Below, in pieces: positions 57,878 through 60,404 of a stretch of 64,000 bases of DNA. A model generated the notes under the pieces. That model worked only from the letters and a program-made list of their open reading frames with translations. It was not told the DNA's origin and ran no database searches. The DNA is taken from assembly GCA_030066775.1 (NCBI GenBank), contig JASJAY010000011.1, forward strand, positions 13,047-77,046, written 5' to 3'. A program made the translations under genes and the position numbers. The DNA comes from Planctomycetota bacterium. Its GTDB lineage: Bacteria; Planctomycetota; PLA2; JAEUHO01. Position 1 is the first letter of the stretch, and every line of letters starts with the position of its first letter.

Positions 57878-59368
57878 GTGTCGAAAGGGGACCCCGTCGT
57901 GCCGAACGCCGCCGCGACATGCCTGACCCTGACGCTCATGGCGGCGCTCCTCCTTACGGGAGCGCCGCTCTACGCCGACGAGTACGTCGCGCTCGGCGCG
58001 CCGGCGTCTGAGGTCGTGCCCGAGGGCACGTCGACCCGTGCCAACGCCTTCCCGCGCTATGTCCCGACGGGCGTGAACGCGGCGCCTGATCGGGAGACGG
58101 CGCGCGAGCTCGCGCGCACCTGGGCGGCCGCTGCCGAAGCCGTGGCGCTCGAGCGTCCCGGCACCCAGCTCGCCGTGGACCTGCTCTTCGGCGCCGCCGC
58201 GGTCCATCGACGCGGCGCTCCGGCGGCGGACATCGAGGCTTATCGCCGGCTCGCCCAGACGGCCGTCGACGCCTGTCAGCCGGACGATCCCGTGGAGGGC
58301 GCGGCGCTCGTGGGTCTCGCCCGCGAAGAGCTCGCCGCCGGCAACGTCCCCGTCGCGGGCCGCTGGCTCGAGCGCGCCGCCAGCTCCTGGGCCGCGGTCG
58401 TGGCGTCGTACGACGGTACCGTCGACGTGCCGGCACGCATCGCGGCGCTCTCGAAGACGTGGACCGAGACCTACCTGCCGACGCGGGCGCGCTGGCTCGA
58501 AGCCGAAGGCCGAGACGCGGACGCGGCGGCGACGTGGTCCACGCTCGCCGAGCGCAGCCCACGCGGCCAGGCACGCCACTGGCGCCGCGCCGCCGAGGCA
58601 CACGTGCGCGCGAAGCAGATGGACGACGCGGGGCGCGCGATCGAGCGCGCCATCGAGGCCGCGCCGAGCGACGGCGTGCGCGGGGAACACCACGTGTGGC
58701 GCTTCTACGCAAAGCACGGCTTGCTCGACGCGCGCGGCCGGCCGCGCGAGCTCGTGAACCAGGGACCGTGGCCCAAGACCAAGGCGCTCGCGCTCGACCT
58801 CGCCGTGCTCCTGAGCGCGCTGTCGAACCTCGAGGGCACCGCCACGCTCTACCTGGAGCTCGGCTCGCGGGCGCACCTGGCGAACGACGACGCCACCGCG
58901 CTCGAGATCTACCTCGCTGCGATGGACAACCCGTACGTCGTACAGGAGGCGCACGGGCAGTCCGCGATCTGGGAAGGCCTGCTCGTGGCGTTCCCGGCAG
59001 CCATCAAGCTGAAGCGCTTCGAGGATGCCGAGCGCATCCTCGAGACGGTGGCCCGCATCGGCTCGATCCCGGCCGAGCGCTTCGAACGCTTGTTGGTGTG
59101 GCTCAAGAAGCGACGCGCCGACGCCGCCGAGGTCGAGGCCTTCGAGCGGCGCATCGCGGAGGAGGCCCAGCGCCGCCGCGAGGCCGAGCGCACACCCGAG
59201 ACGCCGCGCACGGATGCGGACGCCACGCTCGAGGTGGAAGCCGACGACCTGGTGCCGGTCGTCCCGCCGGAACCGGAGCCGGAATCCACCGGAGCGCCGC
59301 GTTGGCTCTATCTGCTGATCTTCGTCGGTGTGCTCGCGCTCTTGATCGTGGTTTTCACACGACCGTGA
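57878..59368 (+). CDS. secreted hypothetical protein with C-terminal TM anchor
   Basis: GTG start 4 nt after preceding stop; signal peptide; helical Ala-rich body; C-terminal WLYLLIFVGVLALLIVVF. Confidence 0.5.
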   Translation: MSKGDPVVPNAAATCLTLTLMAALLLTGAPLYADEYVALGAPASEVVPEGTSTRANAFPRYVPTGVNAAPDRETARELARTWAAAAEAVALERPGTQLAVDLLFGAAAVHRRGAPAADIEAYRRLAQTAVDACQPDDPVEGAALVGLAREELAAGNVPVAGRWLERAASSWAAVVASYDGTVDVPARIAALSKTWTETYLPTRARWLEAEGRDADAAATWSTLAERSPRGQARHWRRAAEAHVRAKQMDDAGRAIERAIEAAPSDGVRGEHHVWRFYAKHGLLDARGRPRELVNQGPWPKTKALALDLAVLLSALSNLEGTATLYLELGSRAHLANDDATALEIYLAAMDNPYVVQEAHGQSAIWEGLLVAFPAAIKLKRFEDAERILETVARIGSIPAERFERLLVWLKKRRADAAEVEAFERRIAEEAQRRREAERTPETPRTDADATLEVEADDLVPVVPPEPEPESTGAPRWLYLLIFVGVLALLIVVFTRP

Positions 59369-60404
59369 CGGGCGTCTCGCCCTTCTCGACGACGTCGCCG
59401 ATCACGGCGCGCGTCTCGACGCCGTGGGCCTCGAGCGCGCTCAGCAGCGCATCCAGCTTCTCGCCGGCGACGCTGATCATCAGCCCACCGCTCGTCTGGG
59501 GATCGGCGAGGACGCCGACCTGCTCGTCGGTGCCGCCCTCGAACGTCGCGTGGTCATTCGCGTACGCGAGGTTGCGGTTGAGGCCCCCGCACGTGTTCTT
59601 CGGTGCGATGTAGCCCGCGAGCCCGTCGATCCACGGCGCGGCGGCGGCATCGAGCCGGATGGTCACGCCGGATGCGTCGGCCATGGAGATGGCGTGGCCC
59701 AGCACGCCGAAGCCGGTGATGTCCGTGGCGGCGTTCACCCCCACCTCCACCATCGCCTTGGCGCCGGCGGCGTTCACGGTGGCCATGATGCGCATGACCT
59801 GCTCGGCGTGCTCGGGCGCGATCGACTCGTTCTTGATCGCGGTGCAGAGGTAGCCGCTGCCCAGCGGCTTCGTGAGCACGAGCTTGTCGCCCGCCTTCGC
59901 ATCCGAGTTCGTGACGATCCGGTCCGGATGCACGGTGCCCGTGACGCAGAGCCCGAACTTGATCTCCTTGTCCTTCACCGTGTGCCCGCCGACGAGCGGC
60001 GTCTCGCACTCGTTGAGCACGTCGATCGCACCGTTGAGGATCGCCGGCGGAACCCACGTCGGCAGGTCGGCCGGGAGGCCGTAGACCGCCACGGCCGAGA
60101 CGGGCACGCCGCCCATCGCGTAGACGTCCGAGATCGCGTTCGCCGCGCCCACGCGGCCGAACCAGGTCGGGTCGTCGACCATGGGCGGGAAGAAGTCGAT
60201 CGTCTGGACGATCGCGAGGTCGTCGCTGAGGCGGACGACGCCGGCGTCGTCCGCGGTGGACGAGCCGACGAGTACTGCGGGGTTCTCAGGCATCCGGACC
60301 GGAGCCAGCAAGGCCTCGAGGGTGGCCTTGTCGACCTTGGCCGCTCACCCACCCGCGGCGGCGTAGTTCGTCAGGCGGACGGTCTCTTGCGTTTCGCTCG
60401 TCAT
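59355..60404 (-). CDS. selD: selenide, water dikinase SelD with in-frame UGA (selenocysteine) at codon 20
   Basis: Reverse strand reads ATG-MTSETQETVRLTNYAAAGG-TGA-AAKVDKATLEALLAPVRMPENP..., matching SelD N-terminus (E. coli ..LTQYSHGAGCGCKISP..) with U at the Cys/Sec position; remainder PurM-like; ORF track only shows the post-TGA part 59355..60311. Confidence 0.8.
60309..60330 (-). ncRNA. candidate SECIS hairpin (CAAGGCC-N8-GGCCTTG) 15 nt downstream of the selD UGA
   Basis: Perfect 7-bp inverted repeat read directly; position consistent with bacterial SECIS elements. Confidence 0.45.

Follow-up and report, generated by a model that had tools for sequence, protein, structure and literature searches.

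Selenocysteine (Sec)-containing forms of selenophosphate synthetase (SelD) have long been known and are often mis-annotated; among bacterial selenoprotein families theirs ranks second in breadth of distribution. Mutagenesis of E. coli SelD has shown that Cys17 and Lys20 are essential. SECIS function from a 3'-UTR or at long distance has reportedly been described in E. coli (Su, Li and Gladyshev 2005). Sec-containing SelD has been listed among the selenoproteins of Deltaproteobacteria and Clostridia, and SelD is sometimes an organism's only selenoprotein (PMC1794560). Organisms that use Sec have been recognised by the joint presence of SelA and SelD (PMC12013277). The bSECISearch consensus for bacterial SECIS elements specifies a loop of 3-9 nt, an upper stem of 4-16 bp, a minimum free energy (MFE) of ≤ -7.5 kcal/mol, a G at loop position 1 or 2 and 16-37 nt between the UGA and the loop (PMC13188914).

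Here we describe a selD gene on the minus strand of a 64-kb window from a Planctomycetota genome, by which we mean the whole stretch of DNA that was analysed. The gene (60404-59355) very probably encodes a Sec-containing selenophosphate synthetase, judging from its sequence and from comparison with relatives. An earlier note on this DNA had proposed that selD is a selenoprotein gene, and this proposal is now backed by a family model, a structure alignment, a Sec/Cys pair of homologs, conservation of the TGA in relatives and the adjacent selA. Coordinates of all features are collected in Table 1.

Table 1. Position and basis of the features at the selA-selD locus.
Feature	Position	Strand	Basis
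selA (L-seryl-tRNA(Sec) selenium transferase)	60424..61911	-	TIGR00474, 504.9 bits, positions 1-454 of 455
selA-selD spacer, 19 nt	60405..60423	-	sequence read
Full selD CDS, 349 codons + stop, through in-frame UGA	59355..60404	-	translation
selD start codon ATG	60402..60404	-	sequence read; equivalent Met in relatives
Putative Sec codon UGA, residue 20 (equivalent of E. coli SelD Cys17)	60345..60347	-	sequence, translation, alignment
HP1, CAAGGCC-ACCCUCGA-GGCCUUG, perfect 7-bp stem, 8-nt loop	60309..60330	-	-11.1 kcal/mol
HP2, GGCUCCG-GUC-CGGA(U)GCC, 7 bp, bulged U, GUC loop	60289..60306	-	-7.7 kcal/mol

The selD frame and its catalytic position

The sequence and its translation confirmed that the selD frame is open from the ATG at 60404 across the TGA at 60347-60345, where the ORF had been split. 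Minus-strand translation gives a product of 349 aa, MTSETQETVRLTNYAAAGG-U-AAKVDK..., which ends at a second TGA (59357-59355). The choice of start agrees with the relatives, which use an equivalent Met (M-x-SE-x-KK-[VI]-RLT...) 18-20 codons 5' of their own TGA. A shorter selD ORF of 318 aa starts at TTG 60311. Counted from this codon the extension comprises 31 residues (19 + U + 11), which corrects the 20 residues given in the earlier note. The public protein for the gene (P0001, 312 aa) is N-terminally truncated and starts at ATG 60295-60293.

Two full-length SelD models recognised the 349-aa product, TIGR00476 with 348 bits (cutoff 125) and NF002098 with 308.6 bits (cutoff 299). Without the N-terminal extension these curated cutoffs would not have been passed; the alignment starts at residue 10. 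The AIRS + AIRS_C architecture is documented by precomputed matches to PF00586 and PF02769, both for the identical protein P0001 and for 120 of 120 listed homologs. The structure of E. coli SelD (3u0o) aligned over residues 6-339 with the 349-aa product, placing U20 on C17 and K23 on K20 without gaps. Together with the family-model match, this bears out the expectation that U occupies the Cys17 position. The Sec loop also aligned with the GCAAK loop that occurs naturally in Aquifex SelD (2yye).

A close homolog has cysteine at this position. P0058, which is 63% identical, reads VRLTNFVAAGG-C-AAKVDKATLE, as opposed to VRLTNYAAAGG-U-AAKVDKATLE here. The 19 residues 5' of the TGA were by themselves sufficient to match residues 5-22 of P0058, and the match ended right before its Cys23 (E = 5e-5).

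We then considered the TGA in relatives, which were gathered one by one via the contigs encoding them; a metagenome scan gave 6 loci. Each of the 14 close relatives, at 56-78% identity, has a TGA at this codon, and the peptide upstream of it is conserved. Among 68 classified loci from diverse SelD genes, the codon is TGA in 52 and encodes Cys in 16. Neither third-position GC nor amino-acid conservation breaks down on either side of the TGA. All but one of the 120 closest listed database proteins are cut off just past the Sec site, the exception being P0058, and adding the product from the window together with its cluster mate makes 121 of 122. The uniformity of this truncation is attributable to gene callers stopping at the Sec UGA, a known artefact for Sec genes (PMC13326102).

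selA, the genetic code and other readings of the UGA

The assertion that selA sits immediately upstream of selD held, as a gene matching TIGR00474 is found 19 nt away on the same strand. Its product has the same sequence as MDJ0973397.1, a protein of a Planctomycetota MAG, and the selA-selD gene order is conserved in relatives. The spacer contains no promoter-like or terminator-like site, and the arrangement resembles a single operon. The only known role of SelA is to make Sec-tRNA(Sec). No tRNA-Sec was detected in the 64-kb window by ARAGORN or by Rfam, either at gathering score or at E ≤ 1. Likewise, selB was absent from the window when Pfam was applied to its 36 larger reading frames and NCBIfam to scanned ORFs, and neither gene was found within the ±10 kb flanks of relatives L001, L002 and L088. 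Both selB and selC are presumably present elsewhere in the genome.

The earlier note expected further mis-annotated Sec genes, for example fdhA, elsewhere in the genome. A scan of the window for coding-like third-position GC on both sides of a TGA yielded no other TGA-interrupted coding frame. Two further TGA codons were considered and rejected. The one at 57872 on the plus strand is a gene boundary, with the two genes separate in relatives. The one at 9534 on the plus strand was a weaker match, and its frame runs antisense to a histidine-kinase gene. We also inspected an O6-methylguanine methyltransferase gene (29492-30004), since Sec forms are known in its family; its domain match is complete and uninterrupted.

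Several explanations other than Sec could be given for the in-frame TGA. Were it a genuine stop, a 19-codon upstream ORF would precede a shorter SelD initiated at TTG 60311 or at ATG 60295-60293. P0001 and 119 of its 120 closest listed homologs are annotated in this manner, and selB and selC were unseen in the window. However, the shorter product would be devoid of the entire glycine-rich loop, including the catalytic Cys/Sec and the Lys (C17 and K20 in E. coli). What would be the upstream ORF is conserved as the N-terminus of SelD in all relatives and in a Cys-type homolog, and the annotated ATG sits within a covarying hairpin. Given also that uniform truncation in databases is the expected footprint of gene callers (PMC13326102), we regard termination at this codon as highly improbable. 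An error in sequencing or assembly, or a Cys codon recently turned into a nonsense codon in what is now a pseudogene, would fit a source that is a metagenome-assembled genome and a TGA only one base away from TGC or TGT. Such an origin is next to impossible to reconcile with the recurrence of the TGA in independent assemblies of the 14 relatives and in the 52 diverse loci, or with the intact third-position GC and amino-acid conservation on its two sides.

It is also conceivable that the UGA is decoded as something else, whether by a near-cognate tRNA (Trp/Cys), by Cys-tRNA(Sec) at low selenium or through reassignment in the lineage. SelB and tRNA-Sec were unseen in the window, and the insertion of Sec at residue 20 is something we infer. 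Against this, TGA ends 20 of the 36 frames that are well supported by GC3, among them selA and selD, and UGA is thus the commonest stop in the window, so it has not been reassigned. Moreover, the adjoining gene is selA, and the conserved structured RNA 3' of the UGA is what SelB-dependent recoding needs. Decoding as another amino acid is therefore very unlikely.

Under the preferred reading, in which selD encodes a selenoprotein, translation would begin at ATG 60404 and the UGA at codon 20 would be recoded to selenocysteine. SelB·GTP·Sec-tRNA(Sec) would be tethered to structured mRNA just 3' of the codon, i.e., a bacterial SECIS, and translation would then proceed to the ordinary UGA stop at 59357-59355. 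The glycine-rich loop near the N-terminus (AGG-U-AAK) would thereby carry Sec where E. coli SelD has its catalytic Cys17, with the conserved Lys after it. SelA, presumably co-transcribed from the gene just upstream, would make the Sec-tRNA(Sec) with selenophosphate coming from SelD. Since SelA needs the selenophosphate made by SelD, the synthesis of SelD itself would depend on selenium supply. We take the conserved hairpin pair, HP1 plus HP2, as the most likely recoding signal.

Structured RNA downstream of the UGA

HP1 begins at the 15th nucleotide after the UGA, leaving 14 nt between them, and its loop begins 21 nt after the UGA. Across the 14 relatives 90.8% of HP1 cells are paired, and the closing pair occurs as C-G, G-C, G-U or A-U. 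Register-shifted hairpins replace HP1 in L086, L089, L094 and L095, and the hairpin is destroyed in the Cys-type relative L097. The loop of HP2 begins 45 nt after the UGA, and the ATG of the truncated protein (60295-60293) is located inside its 3' arm. Pair 51-61 of HP2 is G-C in nine relatives, C-G in three, A-U in one and U-A in one. Pair 52-60 is C-G in 11, with G-C, U-A and U-G in the others. The G and U of the HP2 loop are invariant among the relatives. With the first 12 nt after the UGA masked, HP2 forms at P ≥ 0.8 in 11 of 14 relatives, and the tandem HP1+HP2 fold is predicted in 11-12 of the 14.

The two hairpins together had a covariation score of 0.208, as compared with 0.070 ± 0.018 for shuffles (0 of 500 reached the observed score) and at most 0.091 for slid controls. 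Three pairs had changed on both sides. Covariation was stronger in HP2 than in HP1, in which it is limited to the closing pair. The 60 nt after the codon were more structured in Sec-type genes (mean z of -0.94) than in Cys-type genes (+0.31; Mann-Whitney p = 7e-5). Folding energy alone did not distinguish the window's region significantly from shuffles (z = -1.3 for 66 nt and -1.05 for 60 nt). With GC at 70%, we did not count it towards a SECIS and relied on comparative evidence. No Rfam family matched the hairpin region, with only weak chance hits nearby. We also rejected a long single hairpin proposed by RNAalifold, in which HP1 forms the apex above a lower stem (GCCA/UGGC). Its partition-function probability was near zero, and the lower stem sits within ~12 nt of the UGA, which places it inside the ribosome during UGA decoding.

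Relative to the bSECISearch consensus, both HP1 (7 bp, 8 nt, -11.1) and HP2 (7 bp, 3 nt, -7.7) fall within the limits for stem, loop length and energy. Neither combines the loop G with the spacing: HP1 lies at 21 nt but has the loop ACCCUCGA, and HP2 has a GUC loop but lies at 45 nt. A brute-force hairpin scan of the window's sequence returned no hairpin with both a loop G and a spacing of 16-37 nt. The HP1 loop (AC..U.GA) is without G in its first two positions in the window and in six relatives, and has a G at position 1 or 2 in L002, L081, L089, L094 and L095. More distant Planctomycetota SelD genes have GUN or GG loops. In functional terms, structure 3' of the UGA is conserved with compensatory changes in Sec-type orthologs, as expected of a SECIS.

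The earlier note had singled out the 7-bp hairpin at 60309-60330 as lying where a bacterial SECIS would be expected, and had not mentioned HP2. The hairpin itself stands, being real, conserved and well placed, with its loop 21 nt from the UGA. [quoted passage not shown] We slightly favour HP2 as the candidate SelB-binding element, with the fold of HP1 shortening the effective distance to the UGA. The stricter version of this idea is a tandem SECIS in this Planctomycetota clade, in which HP2, 44-45 nt out, binds SelB and is reached only by way of the folded 22-nt HP1 spacer. We hold this version to be tentative and rather doubtful. If true, it would constitute a natural case in which the distance through structure, not the linear distance, sets SECIS placement, and a class of SECIS that consensus-based predictors miss.

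A serious competitor, to which we give somewhat less than even chances, is that HP1 alone is the SECIS, maybe with the lower stem GCCA/UGGC, and that HP2 is accessory or unrelated. HP1 has the spacing (21 nt, within 16-37 nt), 7-bp stem, 8-nt loop and energy of -11.1 kcal/mol that the consensus calls for (PMC13188914), and it occupies the same place as the upper stem-loop of E. coli fdhF. It is kept through register shifts in L086, L089 and L094 and lost in the Cys-type relative, and its loop has the G at position 1 or 2 in the five relatives named above. On the other hand, that G is missing in the window and six relatives, and covariation is confined to the closing pair. It is HP2 that shows the stronger covariation and an invariant G-U loop of the kind typical for SelB targets, and the GUN or GG loops of the more distant Planctomycetota genes likewise speak against HP1 acting by itself.

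Comparison with known SelD proteins and SECIS elements

Sec-containing SelD is textbook knowledge and widespread, and this gene adds nothing new on SelD biology. The sole mildly novel aspect may be the predicted tandem, off-consensus SECIS arrangement in the clade. An off-consensus RNA 3' of the UGA bears on the design of SECIS predictors and on how strictly SelB tethering follows linear distance. In terms of annotation, the proper entry for selD is a selenoprotein of 349 aa, with transl_except Sec at codon 20, and not a fragment of 312-318 aa. The same re-annotation applies to essentially the whole clade, given that 119 of the 120 closest listed proteins are truncated. The organism is probably a selenocysteine user, and hence other UGA-interrupted genes of its genome merit a dedicated search.

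The window's SelD aligned end to end with SelD of E. coli (3u0o, E = 3e-67) and of Aquifex aeolicus (2yye/2zod, E = 3.5e-53), and the glycine-rich loop, the Lys and the ATP-binding Asp motifs of these structures are conserved in it. The E. coli protein differs in that its Cys17 comes from a UGY codon and recoding is unneeded, whereas selD of the window has UGA. Known Sec-containing SelD proteins (TIGR00476/COG0709; e.g., Acetomicrobium mobile SelD in BSepDB) belong to the same family and share its two-domain AIRS/AIRS_C build. They too have a UGA in the catalytic N-terminal loop (G-U-A-A-K), structured RNA directly 3' of it and selA near, and they too are truncated by automatic annotation (PMC13326102). 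Two differences set the window's clade apart from them. The peptide after Sec is AAKVDKATLEALLAPVR in place of the common A[AS]K[IL]GPGDL, and the hairpin with G first in its loop lies 44-45 nt from the UGA, behind an extra hairpin, as compared with 16-33 nt in the other Sec-type SelD examined.

The SECIS of E. coli fdhF is likewise a coding-sequence stem-loop just 3' of the UGA. HP1 shares the spacing, stem length, loop length and energy of fdhF-type elements, as well as the position of the fdhF upper stem-loop. HP2 resembles them in its apical G-U loop with a G-C closing pair and in having a bulged U, although this U is on the 3' arm in HP2 and on the 5' arm in fdhF.

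The reading frame of selD and its in-frame UGA

As read and translated from the sequence, the selD frame runs for 19 codons before an in-frame TGA and then stays open for 329 further codons to its terminal TGA. Counting the in-frame TGA as one residue gives a 349-aa product (MTSETQETVRLTNYAAAGG-U-AAKVDKATLEALLAPVRMPENP...). The mechanical ORF list includes only the post-TGA portion of 318 aa from a TTG at 60311. Third-position GC in this frame is 0.87 before the TGA and 0.90 after it (GC of the window is 70%), and this is the sole TGA in the window with a short coding-like stretch on its 5' side and a long one on its 3' side. 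Both SelD equivalog models were matched across the full length by the 349-aa product: TIGR00476 at 348 bits (cutoff 125), from residue 10, i.e., upstream of the TGA, and NF002098 at 308.6 bits (cutoff 299). E. coli SelD (3u0o) aligned end to end (E = 3e-67) with an ungapped N-terminus, placing UGA residue 20 on Cys17 and Lys23 on Lys20, and the alignment of Aquifex aeolicus SelD (2yye/2zod, loop SSGCAAKVGPGDL) was equivalent.

We considered whether the TGA could be a sequencing error, whether the gene could be a pseudogene, and whether the stretch before the TGA could be a genuine short upstream ORF. Among the 120 closest proteins in a large protein collection (56-100% identity), 119 span just 84-93% of the query and start at MDKA, VDKA, LLAP, MRLP and similar, directly past the TGA position. 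The sole full-length protein, the Cys-type homolog P0058 (63% identity), reads ...VRLTNFVAAGG-C-AAKVDKATLEHLL... where selD here reads ...VRLTNYAAAGG-U-AAKVDKATLEALL..., and the 19 residues before the TGA, taken alone, align to its positions 5-22, ending just before Cys23 (E = 5e-5). DNA of 14 close relatives came from species-representative genomes (two Planctomycetota MAGs), JGI metagenome contigs (two), and look-ups by exact protein match (ten), and in every one this codon is TGA, preceded by the conserved peptide M-x-SE-x-x-x-[VI]-RLT-[NKQ]-[YF]-A-x-AGG. In a diverse set of 80 SelD loci, drawn from species-representative genomes, the homologous codon was TGA in 52, TGC or TGT in 16, and unclassified by pattern in 12. 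Reassignment of UGA in the window is excluded: it is a normal stop, ending 20 of the 36 window frames with strong coding composition, selA and selD among them. Because of the homologs, the conservation of the TGA, and the use of UGA as a stop, all three alternatives, a mis-sequenced TGA, a pseudogene, and a true short upstream ORF, are very unlikely. We consider it highly probable that the gene is a Sec-decoded selD, as the earlier note had proposed.

selA, the Sec machinery, and other genes of the window

Features of the window, in window positions, and of one relative, in positions of its own contig
Feature	Position	Strand	Description
selA	60424-61911	-	TIGR00474, 505 bits, 454/455 positions; directly upstream of selD
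selD	59355-60404	-	start ATG 60404-60402; in-frame TGA 60347-60345; terminal TGA 59357-59355
HP1 (first hairpin)	60330-60309	-	perfect 7-bp stem CAAGGCC/GGCCUUG, loop ACCCUCGA, -11.1 kcal/mol
HP2 (second hairpin)	60306-60289	-	GGCUCCG-GUC-CGGA(U)GCC, 7 bp, bulged U, -7.7 kcal/mol
selD of relative L097 (CAZPGF010000086.1)	6001-7059		TGC at Sec position; sole Cys-type SelD in the clade
Gene pair	56876-57874, 57878-59368	+	convergent to selD; no Pfam/NCBIfam match for either
Ion_trans protein	52859-56755	-	1298 aa; weak Ion_trans match only
DUF4340 ORF	45491-46939	-	482 aa; C-terminal ribosomal protein L7/L12 C-terminal domain
tRNA-Ala call (ARAGORN)	45197-45275	+	anticodon AGC; within BtpA-family ORF 44676-45494
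Multidomain ORF	35889-41903	+	2004 aa; CBM9-like, HAMP, GAF, GGDEF, sigma-54 activator AAA+, HTH
tRNA array (ARAGORN)	24881-27279	both	13 tRNAs in 2.4 kb
tRNA-like sequence	25775-25843		28.1 bits
EF-hand protein	2075-3142	+	many EF-hand calcium-binding repeats
Unannotatable ORF	248-1987		579 aa; ends in TGA

A 19-nt spacer separates selA from selD on the same strand, and no promoter-like or terminator-like site was found between them. The selA product is identical to MDJ0973397.1, from a Planctomycetota MAG (87-kb contig). Gene order is conserved in the clade as MutS, M23 peptidase, selA, selD, two unknown genes, Ion_trans protein, NYN, and ABC transporter. Relatives carry the Ion_trans protein at the same place (L088 and L093, 1284-1291 aa). 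In the Cys-type relative L097, selA still lies immediately upstream of selD with an 11-nt overlap, as if Sec had been replaced by Cys in selD while a Sec machinery gene was kept.

selA is not known to act in anything but Sec-tRNA(Sec) synthesis. Taken with the use of SelA plus SelD as a criterion for Sec-utilizing organisms (PMC12013277), this makes the case for Sec use strong but indirect. Neither ARAGORN nor Rfam detected a tRNA-Sec in the window, even at E <= 1, and no SelB was present among the 36 larger window reading frames scanned. As selB and selC are also missing from the ±10-kb flanks of three relatives (L001, L002, and L088), the Sec machinery is split between loci in the clade. The earlier note expected further mis-annotated selenoprotein genes, such as fdhA, elsewhere in the genome; a scan of TGA codons found none in the window, and SelD can be an organism's only selenoprotein (PMC1794560).

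The same scan flagged the gene pair convergent to selD, whose members share one frame and are parted only by a TGA, with a GTG directly after it. Readthrough was rejected here because the two are separate genes in relatives, 6-87 nt apart. The pair is syntenic with selD throughout the clade, and 14 nt at the selD 3' end are shared with its second member.

The tRNA array comprises nine genes on the minus strand (Thr, Lys, Asn, Glu, Met, Arg, Phe, Gly, and Trp) and four on the plus strand (Pro, Leu, His, and Gln); neither program placed a tRNA-Sec in it. Ten exceed the Rfam gathering score, with tRNA-His (27.2 bits) and the extra tRNA-like sequence just below it, and Thr and Met are short (70-72 nt) with no Rfam match. 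The tRNA-Ala call, also without Rfam support, is probably a false positive. By its domains, the 2004-aa ORF is an unusual fusion of a sensor and an enhancer-binding protein. The DUF4340 ORF, an odd domain combination, adjoins an ABC-type auxiliary transport gene. Directly before the EF-hand protein lies the unannotatable ORF in the same frame; the 87 nt between it and the first start codon point to separate genes.

Tandem hairpins downstream of the UGA

The perfect 7-bp hairpin described in the earlier note does exist (HP1); it starts at nt 15 past the UGA, and its loop begins after 21 nt. A second hairpin, HP2, absent from that note, begins two nucleotides past HP1. Both are retained in an ungapped alignment of the window and 13 relatives (n = 14; L096 was omitted as identical to L095 here). 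In HP1, 90.8% of cells are paired and the closing pair varies (C-G in 8, G-C in 2, G-U in 2, and A-U in 1). HP2 covaries at columns 51-61 (G-C in 9, C-G in 3, A-U and U-A in 1 each) and 52-60 (C-G in 11, then G-C, U-A, and U-G). In these pairs a third position where changes are silent (Ala, Arg) is tied to a first position where they alter the amino acid (Leu/Met/Val, Pro/Ser/Ala), a coupling that an RNA constraint, not a protein constraint, would predict. The covariation score for the whole structure was 0.208, versus 0.070 ± 0.018 in column shuffles (0/500 reached 0.208) and a maximum of 0.091 with slid partners. With 14 sequences and a shuffle control that ignores relatedness, we judge this evidence to be good, though short of conclusive.

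When the 12 nt next to the UGA on its 3' side were masked, approximating ribosome cover with UGA in the A site, folding predicted HP1 (or a register variant) and HP2 in tandem with high probability in 11-12 of the 14 sequences. Over the 60 nt past the codon in all fetched loci, Sec-type genes were more structured than Cys-type genes (mean z -0.94 vs +0.31, one-sided Mann-Whitney p = 7e-5). In L097, a single comparator, the HP1 arms are unpaired and the APVR[LMV]P segment encoding HP2 is replaced.

Comparison with known selenoprotein genes

The bacterial bSECISearch consensus comprises a 3-9 nt apical loop on a 4-16 bp stem, a G within the first two loop positions, usually then G or U, a UGA-to-loop distance of 16-37 nt, and an MFE of -7.5 kcal/mol or lower (PMC13188914). 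HP1 satisfies every criterion except the loop G, and HP2 every criterion except spacing (45 nt in the window's copy, 44-45 nt among relatives). A brute-force scan of SelD loci under these rules found no compliant hairpin inside 16-37 nt in the window and 6 of 14 close relatives. Among more distant Sec-type SelD genes, most carry compliant hairpins, either at 16-20 nt (loops GGG, GGA, CGGGU) or 26-33 nt (loops GUC, GUU, GUG, CGGGC). A hairpin with a GUN or CGUGC loop occurs at 44-45 nt in 9 of 15 clade sequences, including the window, and covariation and folding indicate its conservation in most of the remainder. The GU loop falls on Val16 after Sec in the clade, as opposed to Val12 in the 33-nt class.

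Its invariant G-U loop and its stronger covariation slightly favor HP2 as the putative SelB-binding hairpin, whose effective distance from the UGA would be shortened by folded HP1; HP1 is almost as likely to be the SECIS itself. Some genuine bacterial selenoprotein genes, a minority, fall outside the consensus (PMC12013277, PMC13188914), and off-consensus hairpins do not argue against Sec decoding.

Among prokaryotic selenoprotein families SelD is described as second in how widely it occurs, with Sec located in the N-terminal selenium-binding loop (PMC13188914), and every bacterial selenoproteome includes two families, FdhA and SelD (PMC1794560). Since Sec-containing SelD is already widespread and described, the finding of a Sec-type selD is correct but ordinary, and it is useful for annotation. 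The tandem arrangement of off-consensus hairpins, common to the whole clade, is the only departure from the textbook.
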